A stretch of 37,449 nucleotides of DNA, taken from the sequence record SRR31156797_7348. One strand, written 5' to 3'. Both the position numbers and the translations under genes were made by a program. This document shows, piece after piece, positions 12,144 through 31,576 of the stretch (within the stretch, counting starts at the first letter, position 1; every line of letters begins with the position of its first letter). The notes beneath the pieces are model-generated. The model was not told the origin of the DNA and did no database searches. It was given only the letters and a program-made list of their open reading frames with translations.

Positions 12144-12164
12144 CTAGGCACCCCTTTCCTTTGA

Positions 12165-13407: not shown

Positions 13408-13409
13408 GG

Positions 13410-15317: not shown

Positions 15318-15354
15318 AAAAAACTCCTTTTTTCCTGGGGGGTTGAGTTGCCGT

Positions 15355-15390
15355 ACACCTTAGGTCAGGTTAGTGACTTGAGGTGTTTTT
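15355..15390. terminator. Stem-loop between major pilin and pilD
   Basis: ACACCTTAGGTCA-N6-TGACTTGAGGTGT with T-tract on the + strand. Confidence 0.45.
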
Positions 15391-15413
15391 AGTTTCCTAA
15401 AAAAATTAATATC

Positions 15414-15938
15414 TTATAACGGTGGAGGAGCTGGTTGAGGATCTCCAAATACATACTCTCGAGTTAAACCATTGATTTGATTTTGTGTTAACCCAGTACC
15501 GAGAACACCTATCTCGTTGCTATTTTCTTGTCCAGCCTTTAAAACGCCAGCTGGAGCATACATTGTTAAAGCACCTGTTGATCCGATATAAAACATAACA
15601 TTATCAGTATCTTCCCATGATGTACTGTTTAGTAATCCATCATCCATTACATCTTCTAAGGTAAAATCTAAAACCGCGTTAGCTGTCCCGTCATTCAAGT
15701 TGCTATTAGTTGATTGATAGAGCACTGCTGCTGAGAAAGCTTGTTGAATATCAGAAACAACTGCATCTTCTCGAGCATTTTGAATCACGTTCCCAATCGC
15801 AATAACCCCGATCCCAGCGATGATCGCTAAGATAACGACTACTGCCAGCAACTCGACCAAGGAGAGGCCGCGCTCGTCTTTCAATAATTTATTCAATCGA
15901 TTGTCTGTTGTTTCTTCTGCTAAAATTGCATCAATCAT
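15414..15938 (-). CDS. pilA: Type IV major pilin (probable)
   Basis: Class III signal ...KDERG|LSLVELLAVVVILAIIAGI with E5; strong RBS AGGAGGAG before ATG 15938; about 150-aa mature protein. Confidence 0.85.
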   Translation of the reverse strand: MIDAILAEETTDNRLNKLLKDERGLSLVELLAVVVILAIIAGIGVIAIGNVIQNAREDAVVSDIQQAFSAAVLYQSTNSNLNDGTANAVLDFTLEDVMDDGLLNSTSWEDTDNVMFYIGSTGALTMYAPAGVLKAGQENSNEIGVLGTGLTQNQINGLTREYVFGDPQPAPPPL

Positions 15939-16013
15939 AGTGTGTTTACTCCTCCTGTTTCTTCCATATATATTAAACAAGCCGTCTAGGTGGCTTGATA
16001 ATACCAAAATTCA

Positions 16014-17225
16014 TTACCCTTGGATCGCACCGAATAAATCGAACATCGGGATCATGATCGCCGCAACGATCAAGCCAACGATCACACAGATTATCAAGAT
16101 GACAATCGGTTCCATGATCGTTTTCAGTCGCTTACTGGTTTCATCAACTTCTTTTTGATAGATGATACTCAATCGTTTCAGCATGTCCTCAAGGGAACCA
16201 GTACTTTCGCCAATCTCGACCATCTGGGTCACTAACATCGGAACCATCATGTTGCCGCGAAAGACATCGCTCATCTTGCCACCTTCTTCAATTTGAAAGG
16301 CACAGTTATCGATGATTCGCTTGATGTATTTATTGGCAACGACATCCCGACTCATATTCAAGGCGGTCACCATACCGACAGAGCTGCTAAGCAGTGTCGA
16401 CATGGTTGTCATAAATAATGAAAAACTATTTTTGGTGATCATATCGCCCACCAGTGGAATGCGTAATAGAAAACTTTGAAAAGCGAAATCAAAGGTTGGA
16501 TTGCGTCGCGCGATCCACAGTCCGACGAAAAATCCGACGATCAAGACGGCTAAAACCCATCCTCTGGACTGAAGGAACTCGCTGATCGCCATCGTTGCGA
16601 CGGTGATCGTCGGCAGATCGGCATCAAATCCTTCAAATACTTCCACGAACATCGGAACGATCATCACCAATAAAATGATCCCCACGATAAAGGTTAAAAT
16701 CACTAAAATAATTGGATAGACCATCGCGGTAACGATCCCGCTACGGTTTTCGGCGCTTTTTTCATAGTAATCCGCCATATCCTTTAAATTTCCTTCCAGT
16801 GATCCAGACATCTCCGAAACAGCGATGACACTGGTCAGAAGTGTCGGAAAGGCATTGGGATGATCTTTATAGGCTTCTGAGAGCGGGCGTCCGCTATCAA
16901 TCTCATCCCGAACTTCGCCAAGAATTTTCTTGAAATTCGGGTTTTTTTGTTGCTCTTCCAGCATTCGTGAGGCATCAACAATCGTGATCCCCGAAGCGAT
17001 CAGTGTCGAAAACTGGCGCAAATACCCTACCAACAGTTTTAACGAAACTTTCGTAAAGAGTTGAATCTCTTTGTTCGCCAAGGTTTCTGGCTGTTCGATC
17101 AAACTGTTGACTTTGATATGCTTTTGGCGCAGTTTTTGGCGGGCTTCGACGGAGGAATTGGCACGCAAGCTGCCAGAAAACGTTTCGCCTCGGACATTGG
17201 TGCCTTGATAGGCAAAGAGTGCCAT
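16014..17225 (-). CDS. pilC: Type IV pilus platform protein (T2SS-F family)
   Basis: RQFSTLIASGI, EMSGSLE, AMVYP, GESTGSLEDML, MEP..I, IMIPMF. Confidence 0.93.
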   Translation of the reverse strand: MALFAYQGTNVRGETFSGSLRANSSVEARQKLRQKHIKVNSLIEQPETLANKEIQLFTKVSLKLLVGYLRQFSTLIASGITIVDASRMLEEQQKNPNFKKILGEVRDEIDSGRPLSEAYKDHPNAFPTLLTSVIAVSEMSGSLEGNLKDMADYYEKSAENRSGIVTAMVYPIILVILTFIVGIILLVMIVPMFVEVFEGFDADLPTITVATMAISEFLQSRGWVLAVLIVGFFVGLWIARRNPTFDFAFQSFLLRIPLVGDMITKNSFSLFMTTMSTLLSSSVGMVTALNMSRDVVANKYIKRIIDNCAFQIEEGGKMSDVFRGNMMVPMLVTQMVEIGESTGSLEDMLKRLSIIYQKEVDETSKRLKTIMEPIVILIICVIVGLIVAAIMIPMFDLFGAIQG

Positions 17226-17228
17226 CGG

Positions 17229-18539
17229 CTATTCGCCCCCTTCCTCCATTAAGTTATCTGCCACATCGGCATCGACCCGTTCCGCAGCAACCAGTTCTTC
17301 TAAAGAAGCGCTCATGGTATGCATGCCTTCGTTTTTCCCCATCTGCAGCATATTATGGATCTGGTGGGTTTTCCCTTGACGGATCAAGCTGGCGATCCCT
17401 CTGGTATTGAGCATCATCTCGGTTGCTGCTACCCGTCCGTTTCCATCGATCGTTGGCAGCAAGCGCTGGGACAAGATCCCTAGTAAAGCGCCAGCAAGCT
17501 GTGTACGAATCTGAGTCTGCTGATCGGCAGGAAAGACATCGACGATCCGTTCAATAGTCGCTGGGGCACTTGACGTATGCAAGGTTCCTAATACCAAGTG
17601 TCCCGTTTCCGCTGCCGTCAAAGCAATCGAGATTGTTTCAAAATCTCGTAGCTCCCCTACTAAGATGACGTCTGGATCTTGACGCAGGGCAGCTCGTAAG
17701 CCATTGCCAAAGGACATGGTGTCGCTGCCGACTTCGCGCTGGGCAACGATGCTTTTTTTGTGGTTATGGATGTACTCAATCGGGTCTTCCAACGTCAAAA
17801 TATGCGTCTTTTTGGTATCATTCAAATAGTCCAGCATCGCAGCCAGTGTCGTTGATTTCCCTGAACCGGTCGGCCCTGTAACTAAGAACAAGCCTTGGCT
17901 TTTATGGATCAGAGTCCGCAAGACGGTCGGCATACCGAGTTTGCTTAACTTCGGGATCTCGATGGGGATCTGCCGCAAGGCGATCGAAACGGTATCTTTT
18001 TGGCGGAAAATATTGACCCGAAAGCGACAGATGTCGCCTAGTTCGTAGGCCAAGTCGGTCTCGCCTTTTCCCTTGAATTCCTCCCATTGCCGTTGGTTGC
18101 AAAGGATTTCGGCAATGGCTTCGATGTCCTTGGTGTCGATGGTCGGAACCCCTTCAATCGGTAGCAAGTCGCCGTGGCGACGAAAAATCGGCGGTACGCC
18201 TTCGACTAAATGGATATCCGATGCTTTTTGTTCGACGGCGATCATCAACCAATGATCGATCCGCTCTTTAGGTGACATGGCAGCAAATTGCGCCGCTTCG
18301 TTGCGATTGACGCCCTGTGTACTGCTGGCAGTCGTCGTTTTTGTCACTGCTTGCCGTTCTGCTTTTTGAATGATCTCCCGCGTCGAGACAGATCGGTCTT
18401 GATCGCTCTGGCGACTGTGGGCACGTTTTTTTTCTCTCAGTTCACGATTTTCCCGAATGCGGGTACGGGTCGGAGCTGTTTTTTCTCTCGTCGCCCTTTT
18501 GGTTGCTCGCTCTTGTGTTGCCACTCTCGTTTGATCCAT
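17229..18539 (-). CDS. pilT: Type IV pilus retraction ATPase
   Basis: ASDIHL, RFRVNIFRQ, GPTGSGKSTTLAAM, TLEDPIE, ALRQDPDVILVGELRD, AAETGHLV.GTLHT, GIASLIRQ (AIRNLIRE-equivalent), GMHTM. Confidence 0.95.
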   Translation of the reverse strand: MDQTRVATQERATKRATREKTAPTRTRIRENRELREKKRAHSRQSDQDRSVSTREIIQKAERQAVTKTTTASSTQGVNRNEAAQFAAMSPKERIDHWLMIAVEQKASDIHLVEGVPPIFRRHGDLLPIEGVPTIDTKDIEAIAEILCNQRQWEEFKGKGETDLAYELGDICRFRVNIFRQKDTVSIALRQIPIEIPKLSKLGMPTVLRTLIHKSQGLFLVTGPTGSGKSTTLAAMLDYLNDTKKTHILTLEDPIEYIHNHKKSIVAQREVGSDTMSFGNGLRAALRQDPDVILVGELRDFETISIALTAAETGHLVLGTLHTSSAPATIERIVDVFPADQQTQIRTQLAGALLGILSQRLLPTIDGNGRVAATEMMLNTRGIASLIRQGKTHQIHNMLQMGKNEGMHTMSASLEELVAAERVDADVADNLMEEGGE

Positions 18540-18592
18540 TAAACCAGCCCCTTTCTATGTGCATTTCCTTTTAAAACAATGTATGTAGTTCT

Positions 18593-18614
18593 TCGGTGAT
18601 CCCTAGATCACCGA
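18593..18614. other. Intergenic hairpin between pilB and pilT
   Basis: TCGGTGATC-CCTA-GATCACCGA, no clear U-tract. Confidence 0.45.
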
Positions 18615-18630
18615 TAAATCAATCCGTGCC

Positions 18631-20205
18631 TCACTCTTCTGCGGCGACCACCTTCAAGACTTCTTCGATGGTGGAAAAGCCTTGTTGCACTTTGTCTAAC
18701 CCATCATCCAACAAAAAGCGCATCTTTCGTTCCTGAACATAATCCATCAGCTGGTCGTTAGTCGCTTTGTTCGTGATCATACGACGCAGCTTGGCATCGA
18801 TCGTCAACAGCTCTTGGACGGCCATTCGCCCTTTGAATCCCGTATTGCCACACTTTGGACAGCCCACAGGCTGTGCCAGTTCCGTAACCGTGATGCCATA
18901 GGATTCAAATAACTGCTTGTCCTTGTCGCTGGCTGGTCCTACTGTCTTACAAGAAGAACAAAGGGTTCGGACGAGCCGTTGAGCTAAGATGCCTTCTAAC
19001 GCATTAGCGACCAGAAACGGTTCTACCCCCATGTCGACTAAGCGATTGATGGTGCTGACGGAATCATTGGTATGCAGGGTGGATAATACCAAGTGCCCGG
19101 TCATGGAAGCCCGAATCGCAATCTCCGCCGTTTCGCCATCTCGAATCTCTCCCACCATCACGACATTGGGGTCTTGTCGCAAGATCGACCGTAACCCAGC
19201 GGAAAAGGTCAAACCGACATTGCTGTTGACTGCCACTTGGTTGATACCTTGCAGCTGAAACTCTACTGGGTCTTCGACGGTGATAATATTGATCTCCGGC
19301 GTGTTCAACTCTTGCAGCGCCGCATACAAGGAAGATGATTTCCCTGATCCTGTCGGTCCTGTGACAAGAATGATTCCATGGGGTTTATGCAAAATCGCTT
19401 TAAAGGTCGCCAATACCTTCGGTTCAAAGCGAAACTCATCTAGGCGCCGAATGCCACTGGAGCGATCCAACACCCGAATCACGACTTTCTCCCCATGAAT
19501 GACAGGCAAAACCGAGACCCGCAAATCAACCACGTTGCCCCCGTTACGAATCATTGCCCGACCATCTTGTGGCACACGTGTTTCGGTGATATCCAAGGAG
19601 GAAATGATTTTCAGTCGTGAAGTAACACCAGTCTGAATACTCTTAGGCAAGTTTTCATGGGTACGAAGCTCCCCATCGACCCGTAAGCGGACGACTAATC
19701 CTTTTTCTTGGGGATCGAAATGGATATCACTGGCGCCCCGATCCACCGCATCTTGCAGCAGGGTATTGACCAATTTGACAATCGACGAATCATCTAATTT
19801 TGAGTCGCCTTCTGGGTCGATGGTTTCAACGAGAGAGTCGCTCAAGCCATCCAAACTGATCTCAGAAGGGTAATCGCGAACGATCAGTTGTTGGATATCG
19901 GCATTGTGGGCTTTTTGCGGACGAATCAATAACCCAGTGATCAAACGCATTTCATTGATCGCCGCATAATCCCCAGGGTTTGCCATCGCAACGGTCAAGC
20001 GGTTGCCTTTTTTTTCTAATGGAAAGACGCTGTGCTGTTTGGCAAACGAGCGGGGGATCAAGGACAAAACCTCTGAGCTGATCTCTAAGTCAAACAGGTT
20101 GCCTGTTTGTGTTTTCTCAGCAGTGGTTGAACTTGTGGTGTTCTCTGACTTTTTGAGAGGCCTTCTAGGTTTTCTACGTGGCGTTCTTTCACTTGATTGC
20201 GGCAA
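18631..20205 (-). CDS. pilB: Type IV pilus extension ATPase (GspE/PilB family)
   Basis: ASDIHFDP, RLRVDG, LDITETRVPQDGR, GPTGSGKS, LRQDPNVVMVGEIRD, tetracysteine CSSC/CPKC; TTG start at 20205 after AAGGAGG. Confidence 0.95.
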   Translation of the reverse strand: MPQSSERTPRRKPRRPLKKSENTTSSTTAEKTQTGNLFDLEISSEVLSLIPRSFAKQHSVFPLEKKGNRLTVAMANPGDYAAINEMRLITGLLIRPQKAHNADIQQLIVRDYPSEISLDGLSDSLVETIDPEGDSKLDDSSIVKLVNTLLQDAVDRGASDIHFDPQEKGLVVRLRVDGELRTHENLPKSIQTGVTSRLKIISSLDITETRVPQDGRAMIRNGGNVVDLRVSVLPVIHGEKVVIRVLDRSSGIRRLDEFRFEPKVLATFKAILHKPHGIILVTGPTGSGKSSSLYAALQELNTPEINIITVEDPVEFQLQGINQVAVNSNVGLTFSAGLRSILRQDPNVVMVGEIRDGETAEIAIRASMTGHLVLSTLHTNDSVSTINRLVDMGVEPFLVANALEGILAQRLVRTLCSSCKTVGPASDKDKQLFESYGITVTELAQPVGCPKCGNTGFKGRMAVQELLTIDAKLRRMITNKATNDQLMDYVQERKMRFLLDDGLDKVQQGFSTIEEVLKVVAAEE

Positions 20206-20219
20206 CTGGCGCCCTCCTT

Positions 20220-22268
20220 TCAATAATCGAGTTTGTTGATATAGTCAAACATTCGTGTAACGGTTAAATATGCTTCATCATCAGACCACATGTTTCGATC
20301 CAAAAAACTTCTGAGGATCGTTACCTCCCCCGGTTGCGCCTGACTTTCAAAATCGCGGACGCGATAATTGACGCCTAATTGTTGCAGTTGATTTTCCAGT
20401 TCCACCTGGTCATCCATATAGTAAGGTACGAGAACGACCGTTCCTTCAAGACGACGGTTATGAGCCCCTGTTGCTAAAAAAGTCGGGTCAAATAATGCCA
20501 AATCTGGCAGTATTTCCATGACAAAGGTCGACTCTCTATCCACAGCTAAATGAAAGGGTTCAACACCTGTATGACCCAAGATCAGCTGGGCACCATTTTT
20601 TAAGGTGATTTGATTCCAATACGCTGGATCTTCATAATAAGAATCAAAAACCGCTGAACTGCCGGCTTCTGCTAATGCCAGTCTTCGAGCAGTCTTCGGG
20701 GCATCGATAAATGAAAGTCCGTGAACCTCCATTGTGGTATTGCTGCCATCCAATGTGATTCTTGACGGGTCATGGGGCACTGTGAATTGATTTTGATTCT
20801 GAAAATACGAGAAATCATCGATCGTTCCACCACTAGGCATCATCGTATTCGTCAGCATAAAATCACCATAAACAGTAATCCTTCGTTCCGTATCTTCGGT
20901 ACTATGCACGATCGAGCCTTCCGTGACTGGTCCCGCATAAAAATTGCTGCTAGTCAGAACCATCGACGGCTTCATAAACGTCAAACTACCATCTGCTGCA
21001 GGGTTTTGTTTCGTGGCTTCTCGATGATAGAAATTAAAATAATTGCTATTTAATTCGCCTAATCCAGAGCCCGCATCTGGTGAATTTACGGAAACATTCA
21101 GATGGCCTTCAGCAAAGAGAACCCCTTCTTGCTCAACTCTCGAAGCCAAACTATTGGTATTGTTGATCCATACGTTTCCTGCAAGGATATCCGTATATGC
21201 TTGTGAGAGGACCAAGCGGCTGCCAGCTCGACTGCCCAAATCGATATACATTCCTAGACCCGCTTGCAAGAAGATGTCCTTGATCACGTTCAACCCGTTG
21301 CTAGGCTGTCCGCCATCATTCTGGATCGCAAGCAGACTTTTTGCCGAAAGCTGCCCGCTTCCCTGTCCTTCCATCTGGACCCCATGATTAAAGAAAAAGG
21401 AACCATCGAAATGCAGCCGATTAAGAATCGGCTTTGTACGAAAATCTAAAAATCTGCCGTCTTGAAAATCTTGCAGGACATTGTTGGCAAACCCGAATTG
21501 CAAGAAGTCATCCGATTCAAAAGCGAGATAATCAAACGATGGACGTACGCGCTGAAAATCAGCAACTTCGAACAATTTTCGAACCCAGGTATCGGCGGAT
21601 ACCGCTTGCCCTGCTGTAGAGGGTAAGTAATAGGGATAAAAAATGTTTCGCCAAATATCCAGCTGTGTTTGTCTTTGTTCGAGGTCTTCTTCTTCAAGCT
21701 GCATTTCATAGATATATTCGGCAGAAGCTGTATGTACTCGCGGCTGCCCTTCAGCCAATTGCGTCTGATCCGTGACTTGCGATTGAATTTGAATAATGAT
21801 TTGAAGATTGGTTTTATCTGGCAGCATCGAGGCTGCTTGGATCCATCCTTGCTCCCCACCAGATTTCGTCATTACATAAGGGGCGATCTCATTATATTCA
21901 TAGTCAACGATAGAGGAGGTAAAAGAAAATTTATTATCGATGGTCTCATTCACATCGACTTCATCCAGCACAGATCTCAATTCGTTATCTAGATTGTCTA
22001 TCCATTCATTATTATTAGAATAGAAGCCGCCATTCTGCATGGTTCGAGTGATGAAATCATCTATTCTCAGTTTTAGGTCCTGAGAAGCGAGTTGAAAGGA
22101 ATATTCGTGTACATCTTCCACGCGACGGAAGCTATCTACCGTTCGAATTTGTGAATTGACATTTCGAGCAACTAGGAAAACCAAGCCAATCATCAAAGAG
22201 GAAAGAATGATCGCCGCGAGGGCATAAATCAGCGCAAAACCCGCTTCATTTTGTCTACCATCGTCCAT
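20220..22268 (-). CDS. Large pilin-like protein lacking E5 (PilX/GspK-like), about 682 aa
   Basis: MDDGRQNEAG|FALIYALAAIILSSLMIGLVF class III signal with Tyr at +5; large beta-rich C-terminal region. Confidence 0.75.
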   Translation of the reverse strand: MDDGRQNEAGFALIYALAAIILSSLMIGLVFLVARNVNSQIRTVDSFRRVEDVHEYSFQLASQDLKLRIDDFITRTMQNGGFYSNNNEWIDNLDNELRSVLDEVDVNETIDNKFSFTSSIVDYEYNEIAPYVMTKSGGEQGWIQAASMLPDKTNLQIIIQIQSQVTDQTQLAEGQPRVHTASAEYIYEMQLEEEDLEQRQTQLDIWRNIFYPYYLPSTAGQAVSADTWVRKLFEVADFQRVRPSFDYLAFESDDFLQFGFANNVLQDFQDGRFLDFRTKPILNRLHFDGSFFFNHGVQMEGQGSGQLSAKSLLAIQNDGGQPSNGLNVIKDIFLQAGLGMYIDLGSRAGSRLVLSQAYTDILAGNVWINNTNSLASRVEQEGVLFAEGHLNVSVNSPDAGSGLGELNSNYFNFYHREATKQNPAADGSLTFMKPSMVLTSSNFYAGPVTEGSIVHSTEDTERRITVYGDFMLTNTMMPSGGTIDDFSYFQNQNQFTVPHDPSRITLDGSNTTMEVHGLSFIDAPKTARRLALAEAGSSAVFDSYYEDPAYWNQITLKNGAQLILGHTGVEPFHLAVDRESTFVMEILPDLALFDPTFLATGAHNRRLEGTVVLVPYYMDDQVELENQLQQLGVNYRVRDFESQAQPGEVTILRSFLDRNMWSDDEAYLTVTRMFDYINKLDY

Positions 22269-22941
22269 TCCCCGGTACCCCCCCTCTTGCTTTCTCATTG
22301 TCCCGATAATTGATCGTAAATTCTCGTTTATAGATAATCTGCTTGTGGTAATCAGTGACCAGATCCTCCATCTGCCAGCAGCCAGTCAAATCATCATAAT
22401 AATCCGCAAAGTTGATCGTTTCCGTGTAAAATAAAACGAAAAACTTGGTCTGGATACTGAACGTATCGCGATAATTTGGCGTATAGTGATGGGTCAACGT
22501 CGCTTCATTCTCATTTTTTTGTTGAATGATCTTTAACTTAATCGTAGGATCTTTCGTATCATAGACTCTGGCACGAATATTGTTGGTATCTGTGATATCC
22601 GTCACAACCATTCGCGGACTGCCCTCTTCCGTAATCGTTGCCCCTAAGGTTCCTTCGGGCATTGTTTTGACAATATGTTCCTCGTGGAAAAGAAGACTAT
22701 CATATTTTCCTAAATACCCCGCATGTTCATAGATACCATCAATTTTGGCGATTTGGTCTGCTTGCGCCAAGATTTCATTCGCTATCCCTTGAAAGGCAGC
22801 AATTCGACCTTGACGAACAGAGGCTTGGACGATCAAAAAGAGTGTCCCAGAAAAGAGTGCAATGATGATGCCGAATATGACCATCGCCCCTAACAATTCG
22901 ACAAGCGTGATTCCTTGCTCATCCTGTAATCGATGCTTCAT
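22255..22941 (-). CDS. Type IV minor pilin
   Basis: MKHRLQDEQG|ITLVELLGAMVIFGII class III signal; RBS AAGGAGG. Confidence 0.88.
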   Translation of the reverse strand: MKHRLQDEQGITLVELLGAMVIFGIIIALFSGTLFLIVQASVRQGRIAAFQGIANEILAQADQIAKIDGIYEHAGYLGKYDSLLFHEEHIVKTMPEGTLGATITEEGSPRMVVTDITDTNNIRARVYDTKDPTIKLKIIQQKNENEATLTHHYTPNYRDTFSIQTKFFVLFYTETINFADYYDDLTGCWQMEDLVTDYHKQIIYKREFTINYRDNEKARGGVPGNGRW

Positions 22942-22984
22942 CTGCGCCCCTCCTTTGCAACTTCCGCAAGAACAGCCAGCCCTT

Positions 22985-23680
22985 TCAATAGTCTACTACC
23001 CAATGCAGATACGTTTCTGTCAAAAATGCGCCCGTTTGTTTATCGAAGACCTGAATAATAAGTCCGAGCCCGAGCTGACGACGGTCGTAACTGTCTTCTC
23101 GCAGTCCATGTCTGGGGTCTTCGCGAATGGAGACCTTGACCAAATAGTTGGTGGTTTCTTCATTCTCCGACAAGTACGTTCCCATATAGAGGCGATTTTC
23201 TTCCGAATTTACCAAGGGCTGCGGCAAATGAGCGCCAGAATGATCGTATACCACCTTGCGAATAAATCGGCCCCGATTGAGATCATCTACAGCAATCGGG
23301 ATTTCTTCATACATCGGTTGCCCTTGCGCATTGTATTGAATCCCTGAATTATCGAGGACCAAATGGTGTCGGCGAACTTCTGAGGGATCATCTGGATCGA
23401 CCATCATCCAAGAAGGTCTAGCCGTAATGATCCCGATATTCAAATCCGCCAAGTCTTGAGTCTGTGCCCGGTATATTAGCCATTCCTTGACATCATCTCG
23501 TGCTGCGATGGCCTCTTCCATTCGGGTATTGTAGCTAAGGATCAGGTTGTTTTGGATGATCAGCATGGCGATCATGACCATTGCGATCCCGAGAATGACG
23601 ATCGCTCCAAGGATCTCAACAAGGCTGAACCCTGATTCATCAAGTACTTTATGTGCTTGTCTGCCTTTTTTCAGTTTCAT
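22985..23680 (-). CDS. Type IV minor pilin
   Basis: LDESG|FSLVEILGAIVILGI class III signal with E5. Confidence 0.88.
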   Translation of the reverse strand: MKLKKGRQAHKVLDESGFSLVEILGAIVILGIAMVMIAMLIIQNNLILSYNTRMEEAIAARDDVKEWLIYRAQTQDLADLNIGIITARPSWMMVDPDDPSEVRRHHLVLDNSGIQYNAQGQPMYEEIPIAVDDLNRGRFIRKVVYDHSGAHLPQPLVNSEENRLYMGTYLSENEETTNYLVKVSIREDPRHGLREDSYDRRQLGLGLIIQVFDKQTGAFLTETYLHWVVDY

Positions 23681-23705
23681 CACCTGCTTTTTGCCTAGCC
23701 CCCGA

Positions 23706-24035
23706 TCAAGGAGAATCCTTTTCTTCTAGCTGGTTGATACTTGTATCTGGGTCAAGAAAAGATAATTTGCTAAGGGTAAACCCCCAGTGAATCAGTTTAT
23801 TGAAATCAGGGTAGTCAGCTAATGGAATACTTTTTTTGGCTTTGCGTGTGATGCGGATTCGTTCCCTGATATAATGATACCTTTCTTCTTCAACCAGTCG
23901 CTGAATCTCGGCGATCTCTTTTTCAACATCAGGATCTTCGACATTCGCTTGCATATATTGTTGGTAGAAATAATCCAAATACTTCCCGTATTGAAGAAAA
24001 TAATGGTATTCAATTTCTTCAATGACCATTTTCAC
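23706..24035 (-). CDS. Small hypothetical cytoplasmic protein in the pilus cluster
   Basis: RBS AAGGAG before GTG; 109-aa co-oriented ORF. Confidence 0.7.
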   Translation of the reverse strand: MKMVIEEIEYHYFLQYGKYLDYFYQQYMQANVEDPDVEKEIAEIQRLVEEERYHYIRERIRITRKAKKSIPLADYPDFNKLIHWGFTLSKLSFLDPDTSINQLEEKDSP

Positions 24036-24067: not shown

Positions 24068-25501
24068 TTATTGAAGTGAGTGCAAATGCCGATAGATGAT
24101 CGCAGTGGCACTCTCTGGCCGATCATTGTCTAACTGAAAGACCTCCCTTAATGATTGTCGATCAGAAGCCTGAATGACTTCGACTTTCGGTAAAAGTTTG
24201 TAGGCAAGATGGCTATCGTCTGCGACACTTGTATCGATCATCACTTGTTCGATCAGTGAACGGGTGACGCCATAACCGTCTTCACTTTGATAGGATCGGT
24301 CCAAAGGGAAACTATAATAAAACCAGCCATCATCGGGATTATAGATCCAAGTATTTCGATCGATCTGACGGTAATCACTCAAAGAGCCGAATTCGATCAT
24401 GATGGCTTCTGAGTCGATCTGGGCGGGACTTTCAGAGACAAAGCTGCTTAGCGTTTTCACCGTTTGGGTCGGATACAAGCCAGCAGCATCGGGAAACGCA
24501 CTGATCATCTCTGGCAAGTGAAAGGCACTGCCTAACCCAGATTCTGTCGTCGTGTAATCAAATGACGACTGGTCAATCGTTCCCTGTTCTCCGAGATACG
24601 TGAATCCCGTAGGTTCCTCACTGGTGGAAAAGGGGCTGGCTAGCTGCGACTCCGCCCAGTTTCGAACAAAATAACGATACCCTTCAAGATAATAACTATA
24701 GGTCAAGTTGGTTGCTTCAAAGGTCCACTCAGCAACCGGATCAGCAGGATTGAGCAGCAGCAGTTCCCCACTCATTTTCTGCATGACCGGTCGTTGGTTC
24801 CGTCGAAAGGAATAGCTGAAGTGAGCTTCGACAAGGACCGGTTCTTGCCAGAGATCAGGCGGACCATCGATCAAGTCTGATGACGGTTGCTCCTCCATTT
24901 CTTCGTTGCCTTCGGTGCGATCGTAGAAGTTCTCAGGATTTCCCTGTCCTTCAGCGTCTAATTCCCCCAATAGCTCCTGCATCTCTTCACTATCGAAGGC
25001 ATCCAAGGCAGGCGTGGGTGCCAATTCTTCGATCGTCTCATCGCTGATCCAAACCATCACTTGACCATCAAGAGCATTTCCAATGAGTTCTGGGATCTGC
25101 TGGGTCACGTTCTGATACCCTCTTGCTAAAATTTCGTTTTCATCATAGCGAGACAGTACTGGTAATAAGTCTGGCGCATCACTCGCATCTGCCGCCTGCT
25201 CAAAAGCTGCTTCCTCACTGTCTGGCGCGATATAGCGTAGCACTTCTTCAAAACTTGCTCGGACAAAGACTGGCACTTCACTAGCGTTCATTACCCGAAC
25301 GGATCGTTGGATCGTCGTCCCTGTAAGGGTCATTCGTTCCTGCCATTCTTCCAAAATCTCGATTTTTTCGAACACTTCATTTTCATCCGCTAATCGACGA
25401 ATATGAATAGACTGATTATTCTGCCAAATCAAGATGCTAAGCAACAAAAGAAAGAAAAGCAGACCCGCGATACTATTTCTTAACACTATTTTTTTTTGCA
25501 C
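24068..25501 (-). CDS. Membrane-anchored BsaA/TasA-like (SipW-class) exported protein
   Basis: N-terminal TM; IEILEEW, SVRVMNASEVPVFVRASFEEVL, WIYNPDDGWFYY and KVEVIQAS resemble SipW-dependent BsaA-type proteins; start GTG 25501 or TTG 25522. Confidence 0.55.
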   Translation of the reverse strand: MQKKIVLRNSIAGLLFFLLLLSILIWQNNQSIHIRRLADENEVFEKIEILEEWQERMTLTGTTIQRSVRVMNASEVPVFVRASFEEVLRYIAPDSEEAAFEQAADASDAPDLLPVLSRYDENEILARGYQNVTQQIPELIGNALDGQVMVWISDETIEELAPTPALDAFDSEEMQELLGELDAEGQGNPENFYDRTEGNEEMEEQPSSDLIDGPPDLWQEPVLVEAHFSYSFRRNQRPVMQKMSGELLLLNPADPVAEWTFEATNLTYSYYLEGYRYFVRNWAESQLASPFSTSEEPTGFTYLGEQGTIDQSSFDYTTTESGLGSAFHLPEMISAFPDAAGLYPTQTVKTLSSFVSESPAQIDSEAIMIEFGSLSDYRQIDRNTWIYNPDDGWFYYSFPLDRSYQSEDGYGVTRSLIEQVMIDTSVADDSHLAYKLLPKVEVIQASDRQSLREVFQLDNDRPESATAIIYRHLHSLQ

Positions 25502-25535
25502 CCTTGTTTCCTCTTTTCTCAAGTAATGACGGCTC

Positions 25536-26579
25536 TCAAGTAAAGAGATAAATGCCTAATAGAATGAATAAGGCGATCAATGATACACAGAAGATGATGG
25601 ATAATATCAAGTTTTGATCAATAAAACGAAACACATCTGCTACATGGTTGATACTCATTGAGACTTCTCCAACGAAACGGTCTGCTTCGATGGCTTCTTC
25701 CCCAAATGCCTGTCCATCACCAATGACGGATAAATGATAGCCCTGCTCTTCGTCAGCCTCGATCGATAGTACTCGGCGAGCAATATAGCCGGTTCCTGAG
25801 CCATTTGTAAAGACCGCGAGCCCGTTTGGCTGTACTTGAGTGAAGGCTTGTTCTCTTAAAATGATCAAATCTTGTGTGCGTAATGCGGAGCTGTCAAGAT
25901 TCGCCATCCCATTATCTGATAAACGCACCACCCGATGATTAAAAACTGTCATTCCGTTTTGATCAGTCACATATAAGCCGATAAACGTAAATAGGACAGT
26001 CATGCTACAAACCAAGAAAATCAGATAGATGATTTTCAGTACGAGATTGCCAGATTTCTTTTTGGCTGTTGGTTTCTTCGTCGCGGCTTTGCCTTTTTGC
26101 GGGGGACGTCGTTTCTGGGAAACTTCCGCTGGTTTTTTGCCGTGCTTGCGGGTCCCTTTTGATTTGGCATTAGGATGACTTGATTTTTTGATTTTCCCCT
26201 GCTCGTTGTGCTGACTTGGACGTGCTTGCTGCGGTGGACGCTTTTTCTTTTTGCGTGGTGCTTCACTGGTCGTACTGGCAGCTGCTCTTTCTTTTTGCTT
26301 GCTAGGATGCTGCTTTTCGGTCGGTAATTTGGGGCGATTCGCTGTACCAGCCGCTTTTTTTCGTTTCTTTTTCACAGGCGCCTGTCCTGTCGGTTCTTTT
26401 TGGGTCGGCTTTTTTGGTCGTTTCTTGCCACTAGAAGGGCTGGCTGGCTTGCCTTGCGCCTGAAACTTTTCGATTCGGGGATTTCTCGGTGTATCCTCTG
26501 ATTGGTCTCGTTTTTTTTCACGTTTGGCAGGCTGTGGCGGACGTTTTTTTCTTCTAGGTGCTTGCGACTGATTACTCAT
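25536..26579 (-). CDS. Degenerate SipW-like (S26B) signal-peptidase homologue with long Lys/Arg/Pro-rich N-terminal tail
   Basis: TM, then VRLSDNGM...DLIILR...AVF...IARRVLSI...IGDG...FVGEV...VFRFI, then TM; aligns by eye with SipW VLSGSM...THRIV...KGD...VGKV. Confidence 0.6.
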   Translation of the reverse strand: MSNQSQAPRRKKRPPQPAKREKKRDQSEDTPRNPRIEKFQAQGKPASPSSGKKRPKKPTQKEPTGQAPVKKKRKKAAGTANRPKLPTEKQHPSKQKERAAASTTSEAPRKKKKRPPQQARPSQHNEQGKIKKSSHPNAKSKGTRKHGKKPAEVSQKRRPPQKGKAATKKPTAKKKSGNLVLKIIYLIFLVCSMTVLFTFIGLYVTDQNGMTVFNHRVVRLSDNGMANLDSSALRTQDLIILREQAFTQVQPNGLAVFTNGSGTGYIARRVLSIEADEEQGYHLSVIGDGQAFGEEAIEADRFVGEVSMSINHVADVFRFIDQNLILSIIFCVSLIALFILLGIYLFT

Positions 26580-27951
26580 TGGCATCTACCTCGCTGCCCG
26601 CTCGTTCCATCCCTCTTAATTGGTTTGCATAAGTATTGGCATTGGCATTTTCCTGCAAGCGATCCTTGACGGTCCGAATGGACGCTGGCAAATTCCCTGA
26701 ACCTCGACGATTTGCCGCGCTTCTTTGCAAGTCTTCAAACAACGAACGGGTCGTCTCCGCTTCTTCCTTGCGGGCTGCTTCGATTGCTTGTGCACGTGTG
26801 CGTTCAATCTCTTCCAAAATCTCTTCGGTCGGCTCATTATCATAAATGGTTAGATCATAGGCCTCGATCAACGCATTCAGCTTTTGGTCATAATGGATGT
26901 CCGTAGCATAGCGCCCTGTCAACCACGCAGTTGCTTCCCGATAAGTTGGGGCATTTTCTTTCCAAACGGGGGCATAAAAGCGCGGGTTGCCTGTGATGCC
27001 TCCTCTTAGTAAGCGAGCGTAATCTTCGATGGATTCACGGTAACTTGGGTATTTACGGAAATTGGAAGAGATCGTATACCACGCACCACTTCCATCATCT
27101 TCTTGCGTATTGAAGGTCACTTTTTGCCCACGAAAGCTGCCCTTGATGCCGAAAAGATTATGGTTTGGCGGACTGGATAAGGCGCTGTTTCCTGAGCCGG
27201 TCTCCAAGATGGCTTGTGCGATCATCACTGAGGCATAAAGATCATTGTTATAGGCAACATCTTGCGCGTCAGAACCAATCTCATTGATGAATTGTTGTGT
27301 CGTTAGATTACGTGAAACCGAAAACTGAAAGTTGCTTTCCCGCTCTTCTTCATCGATCGGCGATTCGGGTTCTTCAGTGATTGGATCGGGCTCTTTTTCT
27401 TTGTCCTGATTGGTTTGATTCCCATTTGATTGGTTGTTTCCGCTATTGTTGCTGCTGTTGGTATCGTTGGTTTCTTGCTCATTCGTTTCAGGTCCAGCAG
27501 GCTGATTCGGCTGTTGATCGCCTTCTGAAGGATCTGGCGTCGACGGAACATTTTCGGCCTCTTGGTCTTCTGTTTCATCCGAGCCGCTCTCCATCTCTTC
27601 CTCGTCTGTCTGTCCCTCGTCTGCCGGTCGTTCCACATCATTTACGACTTGGACTTCCGTTCCTTTTTCGGCCTGCTCCGCTTCTTCTGGAAGGGTTTCT
27701 TTTGTTTGTTCTGGAGGAGTATCAAGTTGCTCCGTTATCCTGTCAGCTCCTTCGTAAGAGACCGGTCGGAGGGCATCCGTTATCGATTGCCCACGACTTT
27801 CTCGTTGTGCATCGATGGTTTCCATATAAGTAGATGGTTCTACACCTAAGATCGATCGAACCATGGCTTCAGAAATCGTTTGATTATTGATGATTCCGAT
27901 AAATGCTCCGATCGCTAACAGACTTTTTACGTTTCTTCTGGGCTTTTTCAT
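26572..27951 (-). CDS. Secreted GH73 glucosaminidase/muramidase (FlgJ-like) with acidic low-complexity linker
   Basis: LYASVMIAQAILETGSG, NLFGIKG, FRKYPSY, LTGRYATDIHY; ATG 27951 after GGAGGAGG gives a signal-peptide-like N-terminus. Confidence 0.88.
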   Translation of the reverse strand: MKKPRRNVKSLLAIGAFIGIINNQTISEAMVRSILGVEPSTYMETIDAQRESRGQSITDALRPVSYEGADRITEQLDTPPEQTKETLPEEAEQAEKGTEVQVVNDVERPADEGQTDEEEMESGSDETEDQEAENVPSTPDPSEGDQQPNQPAGPETNEQETNDTNSSNNSGNNQSNGNQTNQDKEKEPDPITEEPESPIDEEERESNFQFSVSRNLTTQQFINEIGSDAQDVAYNNDLYASVMIAQAILETGSGNSALSSPPNHNLFGIKGSFRGQKVTFNTQEDDGSGAWYTISSNFRKYPSYRESIEDYARLLRGGITGNPRFYAPVWKENAPTYREATAWLTGRYATDIHYDQKLNALIEAYDLTIYDNEPTEEILEEIERTRAQAIEAARKEEAETTRSLFEDLQRSAANRRGSGNLPASIRTVKDRLQENANANTYANQLRGMERAGSEVDANE

Positions 27952-28258
27952 CTTCTTGATCCTCCTCCTTGGGGCTGTTCTTGCTGGTGCCTTTTTTTGG
28001 TCGTTCATGGTCTTTGCTTTCATTTTTCTCAAGCTGCACAAGCAGCAATTGATAATGAAAGGCATTGTTCCGCAAATACATCGTAAAACCTAGCAAAAGA
28101 GCGAGTAAAAACAAGTGACTGATAGTGACATATTCTCGAAAGGCAGAGAGATAAAAATAGGCGGTCAGCTGCAAAAATACCGCTAATGGGATCAAAGAAG
28201 CAATAAAGTAGATGCGGTATAAGAATAAGAATCGTTGTTTTTGCTTTTGGGTTCTCAT
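27884..28258 (-). CDS. Small two-TM membrane protein with charged tail
   Basis: RBS AGGAG; two hydrophobic segments; start overlaps the upstream stop. Confidence 0.7.
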   Translation of the reverse strand: MRTQKQKQRFLFLYRIYFIASLIPLAVFLQLTAYFYLSAFREYVTISHLFLLALLLGFTMYLRNNAFHYQLLLVQLEKNESKDHERPKKGTSKNSPKEEDQEDEKAQKKRKKSVSDRSIYRNHQ

Positions 28259-29562
28259 AGACTGCTCCTAACGTCTGTATTGCCTTCGATCAATGCTTTT
28301 TTTTCTAATAGATAGCTTTCGCTTTGGAGAAGATCAAAGTAAGCGGCTTTTCGTAAAAGATTGTCATAGTCCATCTTCATAATGCGTGCGTAAGGTTTTC
28401 TAAACCATGGTCGCTCATACAATTTGACCCGTGATTCAATCACGCTGCATTCATAAAAAACCAAGCTGATATCTTTAGCAGAAAGGTTGTTGTCGACCAC
28501 TTGCTGCACTTGCCCTCTCTCATAGGTCAACTCTTTTTCGTTCAAGGTCATCTTTTCGATCTTTTGTACGAGATTGTCATTGATGCGCCAAACCTGTTCC
28601 AGGTATTTGGCTTTTTGAAAAAGATAGGTATATTCTCGTAAGCTGATCTTCAATTGCGTATGCCAGTTCTCGTCTTCTTCATCGGTCAAGCTGTTTAAAT
28701 AGTGGATACTATTTTTGATCAAAGAGGCTTCCAAGTTTTCGATGTAGATCTCAAGCTTTTGATTGGCCAAGCGCAAGCGCTCTTTGCTTGCTCGTTCTCG
28801 TTTCGCCTCTTCCTCCAACGCTAATTCATTGGCGTTGACTTTGGACAATTGCTTGGCTTTTTTTGACTGTTTTTTTTTGCTGCTTTTTTTGCGAACTTTC
28901 TTTTTGAACTTTGGTGGCTCATCCGCACTGACCTTTTGGAACTCGAGCGTGTCTTCCAGTTCTTTTTTCATTGCATTGGTTTTGCCCTGACGTTTTTCTT
29001 CATGGACTTGCGCTTTCGGGCGACTCACAAACGTGACATTTTGTTCGTCGATCACGCTTTGTACGATTTTTACCAGTTGCTCTTTAAAGTCGTTCGCATC
29101 ACTTACACCAGCGGGGGCTTGCTGCTGCAAGCTGGCATCCAACTGAATCGTAAAGGGAAACTCTTCTTCTGTGTAAGCGATTGGTACAAACTCTAAAAAC
29201 AAATTGCTTTTCTCATCGGACACATGATTGATGCCGATTTGCGTCCACACAAACTGAGGAAATTGCTGTTCCAAGGGAATGCGTAATTTTGAGTAATCAA
29301 TTTTTTTCCGTAAGATCTCCATCTCGATATGATGGGTGAAGGCTTCGATGGAATAAAATTGCTCAAAGTAATGCGTCACTTGTTTGCGGATCGAGGATTT
29401 GAGCGGCCACTTTTTTTGATAGAGGTTGTCGCAGGCAGTGATTACTGATGGAAGTGCCTCTTGTTTATAAAATAATTCCTCAAGATTTGGACTCAAGGTT
29501 GGATAGATGGCAATTTTTAAAATATCATTCGTCACATTCGTCCCAATAACCAACATGCTCAT
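28255..29562 (-). CDS. Hypothetical cytoplasmic protein with Lys-rich segment and coiled coil
   Basis: 435-aa co-oriented ORF; KKKVRKKSSKKKQSKK segment; start uncertain. Confidence 0.75.
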   Translation of the reverse strand: MSMLVIGTNVTNDILKIAIYPTLSPNLEELFYKQEALPSVITACDNLYQKKWPLKSSIRKQVTHYFEQFYSIEAFTHHIEMEILRKKIDYSKLRIPLEQQFPQFVWTQIGINHVSDEKSNLFLEFVPIAYTEEEFPFTIQLDASLQQQAPAGVSDANDFKEQLVKIVQSVIDEQNVTFVSRPKAQVHEEKRQGKTNAMKKELEDTLEFQKVSADEPPKFKKKVRKKSSKKKQSKKAKQLSKVNANELALEEEAKRERASKERLRLANQKLEIYIENLEASLIKNSIHYLNSLTDEEDENWHTQLKISLREYTYLFQKAKYLEQVWRINDNLVQKIEKMTLNEKELTYERGQVQQVVDNNLSAKDISLVFYECSVIESRVKLYERPWFRKPYARIMKMDYDNLLRKAAYFDLLQSESYLLEKKALIEGNTDVRSSL

Positions 29563-29699
29563 AAGAAATCAAGTCGTAGTTGTTGCCCGTGATTTCTTAA
29601 ACAGCACATATGGTCCTAGTGGGTTTCCCTCCTTTGTCGTGTCGCTCTCAGAAATTATTCAGCAGACCTTTTCGTCTATTCCGACTTATAACCTTCGTT

Positions 29700-30785
29700 T
29701 TAGTCTGGCAGATTCAATACTTTGCTATGCTGGATCAACTGCTCAAACAACCCTTTCGACTCATGATGAAACGCCGTAAGTCGTTCTTGGTATTGCTTGA
29801 TCTCTTGACGGATTTTCATCACTTCCATCGATGCTTCTGAAATGATTTTGTGAGCTTCATTTTCCGCCACTTGACGTCTTCTGTCGGCTTCCAGTTCTGC
29901 TTCAGCAGCGGTTTCCCGTGCTTTTTCTTTTGCTTCGATCAAAATCGTCGCCAGCTCGTCCTTCATTTGTTCGACCTTAGCCAGTTCACGTTCCAAGTCA
30001 CGCTGTAAAACATTCTTATCTGCCAGTTGTTCGACTCTTGAACGTTCAAGATCCCGATATTTCGCTTCCGCTTCTTGCAAGCGCAAGTTCAACTGTTGAT
30101 TTTCATTTTCAAGCGAAGTGATCCGCCGCATGCTTTCGACTTCTTTTAATTTGTAGTTTTCGATTATCGCCGCTTTTTCTTCTAAATGAATCGCTTTTTC
30201 TTCAAAAGCTTGGACTTGTTTGCTTTTCTCTTCTAATTCTTTTAGTAATTCATCTTCTCTTTGACGCAATTGTTCGAGCTCTTCTTCTACTTCGATCAAT
30301 TCGTCTTCTTGACTCGTCAACTGCTCAATTTCTTGCTCATAATTGGTTTTGAGGGCTTCTTGTTGACGTTCTGCTTCTTTTAACTGCTGCTGCAACTCGT
30401 TGTAGCGCATTTGCAGCTGCTTGTTTTCATAAATGATACTTTCTTGTTGCGTCGCTTGCGAAGCCATCCGATTGATGGATTCTTGTTTGTTTTCCAATTG
30501 CTTGGTCAAATGTTCGACGGTCTTGGTCAGTTGTGAAACGGTATTTTCTAATGCCAGCAGCTCTTCTTGGGCATCATCGTCATACTCGTCTTCCTCGTAT
30601 TCTTCATCCCCGTACTCATCGTCCTCGTACTCGTCGTCATCATATTCTTCATCGTCATACTCATCGTCATCATATTCTTCATCATCGTACTCGTCTTCGT
30701 CGTACTCTTCTTCATCATATTCCTCGTCGTAGACATGAACGCCTTCGTAAGTTTCTTCATCTTTCTTTTTGCGAAATAATGCCAT
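29700..30785 (-). CDS. Coiled-coil protein with acidic Tyr repeat and DivIVA-like C-terminal region; first gene of the pilus cluster
   Basis: RBS AGGAGG; long heptad pattern; LATILIEAKEKARETAAEAELEA...EAHKIISEA resembles the DivIVA C-terminal coil. Confidence 0.75.
   Translation of the reverse strand: MALFRKKKDEETYEGVHVYDEEYDEEEYDEDEYDDEEYDDDEYDDEEYDDDEYEDDEYGDEEYEEDEYDDDAQEELLALENTVSQLTKTVEHLTKQLENKQESINRMASQATQQESIIYENKQLQMRYNELQQQLKEAERQQEALKTNYEQEIEQLTSQEDELIEVEEELEQLRQREDELLKELEEKSKQVQAFEEKAIHLEEKAAIIENYKLKEVESMRRITSLENENQQLNLRLQEAEAKYRDLERSRVEQLADKNVLQRDLERELAKVEQMKDELATILIEAKEKARETAAEAELEADRRRQVAENEAHKIISEASMEVMKIRQEIKQYQERLTAFHHESKGLFEQLIQHSKVLNLPD
30573..30732 (-). repeat. 15-bp coding tandem repeat encoding [D/E]4-Y pentapeptides
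   Basis: VYDEEY-DEEEY-DEDEY-DDEEY-DDDEY-DDEEY-DDDEY-EDDEY-GDEEY-EEDEY-DDD. Confidence 0.9.
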
Positions 30786-31348: not shown

Positions 31349-31386
31349 AAAAAAAATCAGCGACCTTATAAGCCAAGGTCGCTGAT
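31349..31386 (-). terminator. Intrinsic terminator (minus strand)
   Basis: TCAGCGACCTT-N7-AAGGTCGCTGA with A8 on + strand (U8 on minus). Confidence 0.75.
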
Positions 31387-31576
31387 CGATTCTTTACCTA
31401 TTATATAGTTTTACTGCTCAGTCATCTTTCATCTATTGGAAGCGATCCCTTTTCTCTCAGTTTGAAAGCCGGTTCCTGTCTACCGATCCGCAACTGTAAG
31501 TTTTTTTCTCCCTAATGGGCTGCTCTTCTCTTGCCTTCAAAAAAAGAAAGAACCGTTTCTTGAAAATCAGTTTTCT

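Follow-up and report, generated by a model that had tools for sequence, protein, structure and literature searches.

We analysed a 37,449-nucleotide stretch of DNA from sequence record SRR31156797_7348, referred to throughout as the window, and within it two adjacent genes that encode proteins of 349 and 484 amino acids (aa). The window is enterococcal DNA, its gene products sharing 97–100% protein identity with those of a contig titled Enterococcus entomosocium (locus L001 below). The first gene encodes a homologue of SipW-type signal peptidases that has lost the catalytic Ser and His, the second a BsaA-family protein that has lost the matching SipW-type cleavage site, and both open reading frames (ORFs) are retained under purifying selection beside a type IV pilus (T4P) cluster. 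That this is a co-degenerated, retained enzyme-substrate pair is well supported. Our favoured reading, held with moderate confidence, is that of a SipW/BsaA pair that degenerated jointly and is still selected, in which a membrane-anchored partner and a non-cutting pseudo-peptidase would belong to an envelope platform.

To place the pair among its relatives, we scanned one genome for each species with a pattern taken from a conserved strand of the partner, V-F-V-R-A-S-F-E-E. The scan returned 20 loci, all of them from Enterococcus, Vagococcus or an unclassified Lactobacillales bin. Four loci, counting the window, are degenerate (the window, L001, L002 from Candidatus (Ca.) E. testudinis, and L003) and 17 are of the intact type. 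The L003 contig is titled Enterococcus faecalis; its proteins are merely 32–71% identical to those of the window. For the peptidase, the C-terminal 172 residues were aligned with 17 locus-encoded homologues to give 18 sequences, 14 intact and 4 degenerate. Cluster relatives are few, with 6 for the 349-aa protein and 9 for the 484-aa protein among 5.8 billion.

The 349-aa ORF is a homologue of signal peptidases of the endoplasmic reticulum (ER) type (S26B, SipW/SEC11). A preliminary description of the window had recognised the SipW pattern from the letters alone, and the family profile, the Foldseek search and the models TIGR02228 and NF046067 all point to S26B. By itself the window protein is not recognised. 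Neither it nor the 484-aa protein has a Pfam match even at E≤10, except for DUF2207_C at E=0.099; its own score against TIGR02228 (archaeal/ER-type signal peptidase I) is 12.5 bits (E=0.1), short of the cut-off of 51.85, and its peptidase domain alone has no sequence match in the PDB. A profile of the 18 family members matches human SEC11C (E=4.6e-8) and SEC11A (E=2.6e-7) in the PDB. TIGR02228 is matched by 16 of the 18 members, the two that miss it at E≤0.01 being the window and L001, and the SipW model NF046067 by 15 of the 18. An AlphaFold2 (AF2) model of the 172-aa domain reached a mean predicted local distance difference test score (pLDDT) of 84.1. In Foldseek searches with this model SEC11C ranked first (E=3e-5, template-modelling scores 0.50/0.56) and SEC11A second (E=8e-5), followed by the C-terminal domains of LexA and lambda cI (same clan), by Streptococcus pyogenes SipA (4n31; rank 7, E=1.5e-3) and by Staphylococcus aureus SpsB. 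Hydropathy and the AF2 model give the topology of SipW, with the extracytoplasmic domain held between helices at residues 178–208 and 318–349. The probable true start of the protein is Met3, at position 26579.

The catalytic residues are missing from this fold. The 14 homologues outside the window's clade carry the motifs T-[DN]-S-M, T-H-R and G-D-A-N; in alignments their Ser falls on the nucleophile position of SEC11A, and the His and Asp fall on those of SEC11. The window reads D-N-G-M and A-R-R at the first two motifs, as the preliminary description had noted at about 25905–25920 and 25772–25782 (exact codons in Table 1), and G-D-G-Q at the third, where the Asp (Asp290; D113 in the domain alignment) is invariant across all 18 sequences. 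Ser and His are both present in 14/14 relatives outside the clade. Within it, the Ser position holds Gly in the window, L001 and L002 and keeps Ser in L003 (1/4), and the His position holds Arg in all four degenerate loci. The replacements are themselves conserved: D, N and M of D-N-x-M and both residues of R-R are invariant in the seven sequences available for the clade. The findings that, according to the preliminary description, would speak against it include orthologues that retain Ser/His and a lack of S26 fold similarity; His is gone from all four orthologous loci with Ser kept solely in L003, and the fold search gave SEC11C at E=3e-5.

We then asked how common such losses are among sequences at large. 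In an exhaustive search of 1.84 billion representatives, only three proteins match at E≤1e-30, all of them from the degenerate clade. Among the best 150 of these representatives, 136 keep both Ser and His, which argues that the losses in the window's clade are not chance. The rest of the best 150 comprise the 3 proteins of the degenerate clade, 4 substituted proteins, 2 with Thr at the Ser position, and 5 that have a gap at either or both of the sites or are misaligned. The four substituted relatives are independent of the clade and carry, at the Ser and His positions, Asp/Arg (P0110), Asn/Cys (P0158), Leu/Ser (P0099) and Ser/Tyr (P0145), and indicate that dead S26B relatives occasionally arise elsewhere. 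P0110 and P0158 are SipW-sized, and their S-D-[DN]-M and T-[RC]-R-L recall the motifs of the window.

The 484-aa ORF belongs to the BsaA family. TIGR04090 is matched by all 20 family members examined (best E=1.4e-21), with 66–98 bits for the intact relatives, except for one at 47.9 (L013), against a cut-off of 60. The degenerate-type proteins score lower: 28.5 bits for L002, 27.2 for L003, and 22.2 for the window (E=9.5e-5, residues 65–143), which does not reach the cut-off. A profile comparison by hhalign against ten relatives above the TIGR04090 cut-off (A4 versus A6) gave 99.9% probability and E=6.8e-36, with aligned blocks at window residues 8–165 and 374–484 and about 200 residues inserted between them. 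The relatives bear the NCBI names 'BsaA family SipW-dependent biofilm matrix protein', 'TasA family protein' and 'alternate signal-mediated exported protein', and in the Atlas the window partner lies, at 0.93, beside clusters of the last of these names. An AF2 model of the partner is beta-rich (pLDDT 76.8). Its acidic insert is variable or absent in orthologues and appears as a gap in the hhalign alignment. The likely start is a GTG at 25504, behind a AAGAGGAAA ribosome-binding site, which would give a protein of 478 aa.

What the partner lacks is a SipW-type signal peptide. Type I signal peptidases need small residues at positions −3 and −1 of the cleavage site. At these positions of the old site the window has Leu/Ile, compared with Thr/Ala in the intact type; the preliminary description had read the segment as LSILIWQNNQS, and this is indeed the sequence of residues 28–38. 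No conserved alternative pair of small residues at −3/−1 follows the hydrophobic segment in the window, L002 and L003. The model of SipW-type signal peptides, TIGR04088, is matched above its cut-off by partners from three intact loci (L015, L017 and L020) and is not reported for the window, L002 and L003. Because of the Leu/Ile at −3/−1, the lack of a conserved alternative site and an AF2 helix that runs unbroken through residues 2–52, we predict that the N-terminus is an uncleaved signal anchor. Three residues just past the old cleavage site, Trp33, Gln34 and Gln37, are conserved in both clades.

A second feature has gone from the same region. Ten residues past the old cleavage site, the Asn of an x-N-[RK]-x motif is present in 13/13 intact-type proteins and in 0/7 degenerate-type proteins, which have Arg, Gln or Thr instead; the Lys of a T-K-E-V motif is found in 13/13 versus 2/7, and Glu58 is invariant. 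In C. perfringens BsaA, an intermolecular isopeptide triad of Asn35, Glu56 and Lys74 is described as locking the donor strand into the next subunit, and the same study extends the triad to some Enterococcaceae homologues (10.1101/2024.11.04.621531). The lost Asn is probably the isopeptide donor residue; the window has Arg42, Glu58 and Arg73 at the three candidate positions. L003 still carries Ser and Lys, which suggests stepwise decay, with the His lost first.

The losses in the two proteins coincide, as the preliminary description had supposed from the single example before it. The motif T-[FY]-A-W follows the hydrophobic core in 14 of 14 partners of peptidases with Ser and His intact, twelve of them reading G-T-F-A-W, and in none of the four partners of His-less peptidases, which read [IMT]-L/M-I-W. 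The loci around the pair are reduced in parallel. An LPXTG protein and a BsaA paralogue of about 215–219 aa occur in 17/17 intact-type loci, a BsaA paralogue of ~290 aa in 15/17 (no match in L015 and L017), and a large protein of >700 aa in 16/17 (in L013 the contig ends first); all are missing from 4/4 degenerate loci. An S26A signal peptidase, encoded between the genes of a protein of 435 aa (unk435) and a small membrane protein, is likewise present in the 7/7 intact loci that have an upstream DivIVA module and in 0/4 degenerate loci. At least five accompanying genes have been lost from the degenerate locus.

In a maximum-likelihood tree of the 18 peptidase domains, rooted at the midpoint only, the degenerate four fall on one side of a branch with 100/100 support, so that a single change suffices. 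Their topology is (L003,(L002,(window,L001))). Since Ser and His are common to SEC11 and SipW, the degenerate state is derived. The branch that leads to the clade is long, with ~3 substitutions per site between the groups.

Neither ORF is disrupted in the window, L001, L002 or L003, or in homologues P0001–P0012. Between the window and L002 and L003, respectively, the proportion of non-synonymous differences (pN) in the catalytic-domain homologue is 0.34 and 0.44, against proportions of synonymous differences (pS) of 0.77 and 0.84; since synonymous rates (dS) are saturated at these distances, we quote pN and pS only. For the BsaA-like gene pN is 0.40 and pS 0.74. The cytoplasmic tail of the peptidase homologue evolves faster (pN 0.55 against L002 and L003). 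Over the seven full-length clade sequences 80 columns are invariant, replacement motifs included. Residue conservation and a comparison of the dN/dS type, both suggested in the preliminary description as checks, thus agree: the replacement residues do not vary and pN lies well below pS. The pair is under purifying selection and not decaying.

In the window the order of transcription is DivIVA-like, unk435, mem124 (the small membrane protein), the glucosaminidase GH73, the 349-aa ORF, the 484-aa ORF, a 109-aa ORF (orf109), the T4P cluster and menG. The module from the DivIVA-like gene through SipW and BsaA recurs in 11 loci, and seven of these have intact peptidases, the complete BsaA gene set, an upstream tyrosine integrase and no T4P genes.

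We propose the following sequence of events for our favoured reading. In related Enterococcaceae, an ER-type peptidase with a long tail would cleave the G-T-F-A|W signal peptide of a BsaA-family subunit, and what else the intact operon encodes (the LPXTG protein, the large protein and a pair of smaller BsaA paralogues) would fit a fibre that is secreted, anchored to the wall and assembled through donor-strand exchange. The peptidase of the window's clade would have lost its His base first and its Ser nucleophile later, and the surviving BsaA-like protein would have lost the small residues at −3/−1 and the conserved Asn of its would-be donor-strand segment, with the accessory fibre genes and the extra S26A peptidase disappearing from the clade. 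The product is likely a type II membrane protein, with its N-terminus inside, a single anchor helix that stays uncleaved, and a large ectodomain that is rich in beta structure and includes an acidic loop. The S26 domain of the two-helix pseudo-peptidase probably still binds the anchor or juxtamembrane segment of its partner, in the region of Trp33, Gln34 and Gln37, without cutting it. Together with the DivIVA-like protein, unk435, mem124 and GH73, the pair probably makes up an envelope platform, which here is probably transcribed ahead of the T4P genes. Modelling the pseudo-peptidase domain in complex with the entire partner scored 0.00 in two runs made without alignments or controls, and speaks neither for nor against this reading.

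Several points weigh against this reading. The matched losses all lie on one branch, and thus represent a single event and not replicated co-evolution. The comparison with the closest relative, L001, yields 2 non-synonymous and 1 synonymous difference in the catalytic-domain homologue, too few to inform on selection. A TasA-like fold of the partner, which the preliminary description had also proposed, would follow from family membership only, because a Foldseek search of the PDB with the 484-aa model had no match at E≤0.001 (best E=0.14) and sequence searches of the PDB with profiles A4 and A6 found no TasA or other match. Non-cleavage is read from the −3/−1 rule, from a signal-peptide model that is unreported in degenerate-type partners and from a modelled helix. 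Finally, the Asn, Glu and Lys of the enterococcal proteins would map to C. perfringens N35, E56 and K74 by position and spacing.

A feature of the module that may bear on the platform is charge. The tail of the peptidase homologue carries +37 to +47 in the degenerate clade versus +6 to +15 in intact Enterococcus loci, and residues 1–80 of the DivIVA-like protein carry −27 to −45 versus −11 to −14. This hints that an electrostatic contact between the tail and the DivIVA-like protein has been strengthened on the degenerate branch. The DivIVA-like protein has [DE][DE]Y repeats, and the opposite charges have been amplified together (26055–26585 and 30546–30785 in the window; homologues in L002–L014).

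Alternatively, the pair might have been taken over by the T4P as a structural or assembly partner anchored in the membrane, aiding wall crossing or positioning or acting with PilM/N/O. This was the proposal of the preliminary description, and we regard it as possible but doubtful. In its favour, T4P genes directly follow the pair in three of the four degenerate loci (window, L001 and L003) and in none of the 17 intact-type loci, within any of which the T4P proteins of the window have no match. The topology of the tree makes this adjacency most simply ancestral to the degenerate clade and later lost in L002, that is, acquired on or near the branch on which catalysis was lost, a history that fits the pilus idea and coincidence alike. 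From the GH73 gene to PilB, neighbouring genes overlap or are separated by gaps of ≤43 nucleotides (nt), and no convincing minus-strand terminator is predicted there. In L002, orf109 is followed by a terminator-like hairpin and then menG, with no T4P cluster at the locus, whereas the window continues into the pilin genes; the orf109–menG junction of L002 holds no meaningful remnants of a T4P deletion. There is also a precedent for a functional link: C. perfringens is reported to need T4P proteins to secrete BsaC efficiently and, in part, to secrete BsaA oligomers (10.1101/2024.11.04.621531), in a study that describes T4P as uncommon among Gram-positives outside the clostridia.

Several points speak against it. 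The preliminary description had placed the pair inside a T4P operon, but it adjoins the 5' edge of the T4P cluster instead, and the case for a pilus partner was drawn from this adjacency, which by itself is weak evidence. The pair and the upstream module are older than the adjacency and serve a BsaA fibre elsewhere, as the seven loci with intact peptidases and without T4P genes illustrate, and the pair is therefore not intrinsically a pilus component. L002 retains a conserved, intact pair on a branch of ordinary length, which speaks for a role independent of a neighbouring T4P cluster. Neither protein matches pilin, PilM/N/O or any other T4P family in Pfam or NCBIfam. The N-terminus of the partner is not a prepilin signal either: as a candidate substrate of the prepilin peptidase it was rejected, since it lacks both a conserved Gly ahead of the hydrophobic stretch and a Glu at +5.

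A more specific arrangement can be imagined, although we think it unlikely to hold as drawn. The module would be a polar or septal platform that first pushed a BsaA fibre through the wall and was then re-used for T4P, with the disabled pair as a permanent membrane-to-wall strut and with the +47 cytoplasmic tail of the peptidase docking on the −44 acidic tail of the DivIVA-like protein. If true, Gram-positives would have in this platform a counterpart of the alignment/secretin subcomplex, and it would offer a handle on how T4P cross thick peptidoglycan.

It is improbable, we believe, that the partner is still exported and released by a housekeeping S26A peptidase or another protease, with the dead SipW kept for a non-catalytic role such as regulation. 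Bacillus subtilis SipW is reportedly bifunctional, and the conservation of Trp33, Gln34 and Gln37 in both clades could be taken to favour such release. Against it stand the missing small-residue pair at −3/−1 and the absence of the module's own S26A peptidase from the clade; moreover, with the donor-strand Asn and the LPXTG base protein gone, a released subunit would miss the features needed for a locked, wall-anchored fibre. Least of all do we favour a decaying relic of a lost fibre operon without present function, an explanation that the gene losses, the long branch and the tiny size of the family (three representatives at the threshold given above) would fit, and that is made very improbable by ORFs intact in every lineage seen, by a pN of 0.34–0.44 at saturated synonymous sites, by the 80 invariant columns with the replacement motifs among them, and by an operon-like arrangement in which the genes overlap or abut their neighbours.

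Returning to the co-degenerated pair, we compared it with the systems it most resembles. In SipW-TasA of B. subtilis and SipW-BsaA/BsaB/BsaC of C. perfringens the gene order is the same, with an S26B gene directly upstream of a gene of the BsaA/TasA superfamily. The two-helix membrane topology of the peptidase is shared as well, TIGR04090 matches the partner, and intact Enterococcaceae relatives have the whole set, LPXTG protein included. The window differs in having no Ser nucleophile, His base, SipW-type signal peptide or candidate isopeptide Asn; additional BsaA paralogues, the LPXTG protein and the large protein are missing too. Its peptidase has a basic cytoplasmic tail of 177 aa, and its partner is about twice the size of BsaA owing to the ~200-aa insertion. 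The pair derives from the SipW-BsaA/TasA system but, since the defining catalytic and signal-peptide features have failed, should not be counted as a working member.

The closest functional analogue is SipA of S. pyogenes, which is reported to be without the catalytic Ser and Lys, to keep a peptide-binding cleft and to be essential for pilus assembly, and which has been proposed to hold a pilus component rather than cut it (PMC4049620). Like the window peptidase, it has the fold of a signal peptidase without either catalytic residue, and its gene lies in a cluster for a surface fibre; a binding-not-cutting role is proposed for both, and the two are linked by the Foldseek match given above. SipA is of S26A (Ser/Lys) descent, its catalytic residues now being Asp and Gly, whereas the window protein is nearest to S26B (Ser/His) and has a second, C-terminal membrane helix and a long cytoplasmic tail. 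SipA also pairs with sortase pilins, the window protein with a BsaA-family protein.

The C. perfringens system in which Bsa secretion depends on T4P (Kivimaki et al., bioRxiv 10.1101/2024.11.04.621531) provides a functional link between T4P machinery, sipW and bsa in a Gram-positive bacterium, and BsaA oligomers are reported there to be membrane-anchored. According to that study, C. perfringens has an active peptidase, and its BsaA is cleaved and forms polymers; the bsa operon is treated there as a set of genes separate from those associated with T4P. In the window, by contrast, the Bsa and T4P gene sets are contiguous, and the Bsa part is catalytically and proteolytically disabled. The preliminary description had called the arrangement a hybrid not recognised from described systems, and this is partly answered by the passages cited here on T4P-dependent Bsa secretion and on SipA (PMC4049620): a link between T4P and Bsa and a dead S26A homologue are already known, and a dead SipW-type pair retained beside T4P is a variant of these. 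Among the papers listed on SipW in Enterococcus, on inactive SipW and on TasA, the donor strand and signal peptidases in Enterococcus, none showed a description of a dead SipW or of this pair, the supplements of Kivimaki et al. with a list of BsaA-like proteins not being covered.

The pair offers a clean natural case in which an enzyme and its substrate were disabled jointly and have since been maintained by selection. The case carries the idea of a pseudo-signal-peptidase over from the S26A-type SipA to the ER-type SipW branch, and places a remnant of the BsaA/TasA family physically beside a T4P cluster in Enterococcus. Since intact and degenerate versions occur in sister species, comparative experiments could reveal the role of a signal-peptidase fold that does not cut.

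The positions of the pair, its motifs and its neighbours are collected in Table 1.

Table 1. Features of the pair and of the surrounding genes in the window (positions in the 37,449-nt stretch).
Feature	Position	Strand	Basis
BsaA-family protein, 484 aa as listed	24068..25522	minus	TIGR04090, hhalign
N-terminal hydrophobic segment of partner, residues 11–36, predicted uncleaved signal anchor	25415..25492	minus	hydropathy; AF2 continuous helix 2–52
I-L-I-W-Q-N-N-Q-S where intact relatives have the SipW-type site G-T-F-A|W-x-T	25409..25435	minus	alignment
V-F-V-R-A-S-F-E-E, most conserved strand of the BsaA core	25244..25270	minus	invariant columns
Acidic disordered insert, ~residues 165–228, part of the ~200-aa insertion relative to short BsaA paralogues	24839..25030	minus	pLDDT <50 over 191–225
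S26B (SipW/SEC11-type) pseudo-peptidase, 349 aa	25536..26585	minus	family profile, Foldseek, TIGR02228 in 16/18 members
N-terminal cytoplasmic tail of pseudo-peptidase, residues 1–177, Lys/Arg/Pro-rich, net charge +47	26055..26585	minus	composition and hydropathy
First transmembrane helix, residues 178–208	25962..26054	minus	Kyte-Doolittle; AF2 helix 2–33 of the 172-aa model
C-terminal transmembrane helix, residues 318–349	25539..25634	minus	hydropathy; AF2 helix 149–171 of the model
D-N-G-M (D224-N225-G226-M227) replacing the nucleophile motif T-[DN]-S-M	25905..25916	minus	alignment of 18 homologues
A-R-R (A269-R270-R271) replacing T-H-R, Arg270 at the His position	25773..25781	minus	alignment
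G-D-G-Q replacing G-D-A-N, Asp retained	25710..25721	minus	alignment
Upstream module, conserved	26572..30785	minus	Pfam; order repeated in L001–L006, L009, L011, L012, L014
DivIVA-like coiled-coil protein	29700–30785	minus	Pfam
unk435, conserved 435-aa protein, no family assigned	28255–29562	minus	
mem124, small membrane protein	27884–28258	minus	
GH73 glucosaminidase	26572–28065	minus	Pfam
orf109, small cytoplasmic 109-aa protein, between the pair and the first pilin gene	23706..24035	minus	
Type IV pilus (T4P) cluster	8100..23683	minus	Pfam and NCBIfam
Terminator-like hairpin of upstream gntR-type gene	31355..31387	minus	14-pair stem, then T-run

The minus strand carries every gene from 30785 down to 7134. 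The T4P cluster comprises two prepilin-like genes, a gene for a 692-aa protein, PilB, PilT, PilC, PilA, PilD, PilM and PilN/O-like genes, and a gene for a 1347-aa protein. The last of these (8100–12143) ends the cluster; its product has a pectate-lyase-like adhesive domain and a hydrophobic segment at residues 6–40, and may be a pilus-associated or T4P-dependent adhesin. The T4P minor pilins and the 1347-aa protein were considered as descendants of the lost LPXTG, BsaA and large-protein genes and rejected, as tblastn and blastp gave no match at E≤1e-3. The PilA of the window (15414–16007) is merely 69% identical to its counterpart in L001 (19516–20100; non-synonymous rate (dN) 0.21, dS 0.67) amid flanking genes at 97–100%, which suggests pilin diversification or allele exchange. 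The small gene orf109 is present in L001 and L002 and absent from L003, and has no family match in Pfam or NCBIfam scans.

Among the intact loci, sipW-bsaA islands can occur in several copies, with three in Ca. E. ferrettii, two in E. pallens and four in Ca. E. moelleringii. Upstream of such islands (L004–L014, for example L004:3327–19518) lies a tyrosine integrase, and downstream come resolvase-like, regulator and NlpC/P60 genes, which suggests that the islands are mobile or duplicating.

The terminator-like hairpin of the gntR-type gene is the probable 5' limit of a long transcription unit. No comparable minus-strand terminator-like site occurs between 30785 and 20000, and a single long unit from the DivIVA-like gene onward is plausible from the sequence. 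No Rfam family was found anywhere in the window at the gathering score. The mem124 and GH73 ORFs overlap by 182 nt in different frames, and their counterparts in L002 (7239–7481 and 7498–8925) do not; probably one start or stop call is wrong in the window, or the tail of mem124 is lineage-specific. The protein unk435 is cytoplasmic and strongly conserved, with 94 invariant columns over 10 sequences at identities down to 37% and a Lys-rich central stretch; Pfam, PDB profile searches and the Atlas gave no lead to its family, and its gene always sits between the DivIVA-like gene and the membrane/GH73 genes. Finally, a leader of ~570 nt (30786–31354) separates the upstream terminator from the DivIVA-like gene; it is a candidate for a region that regulates the unit as a whole.

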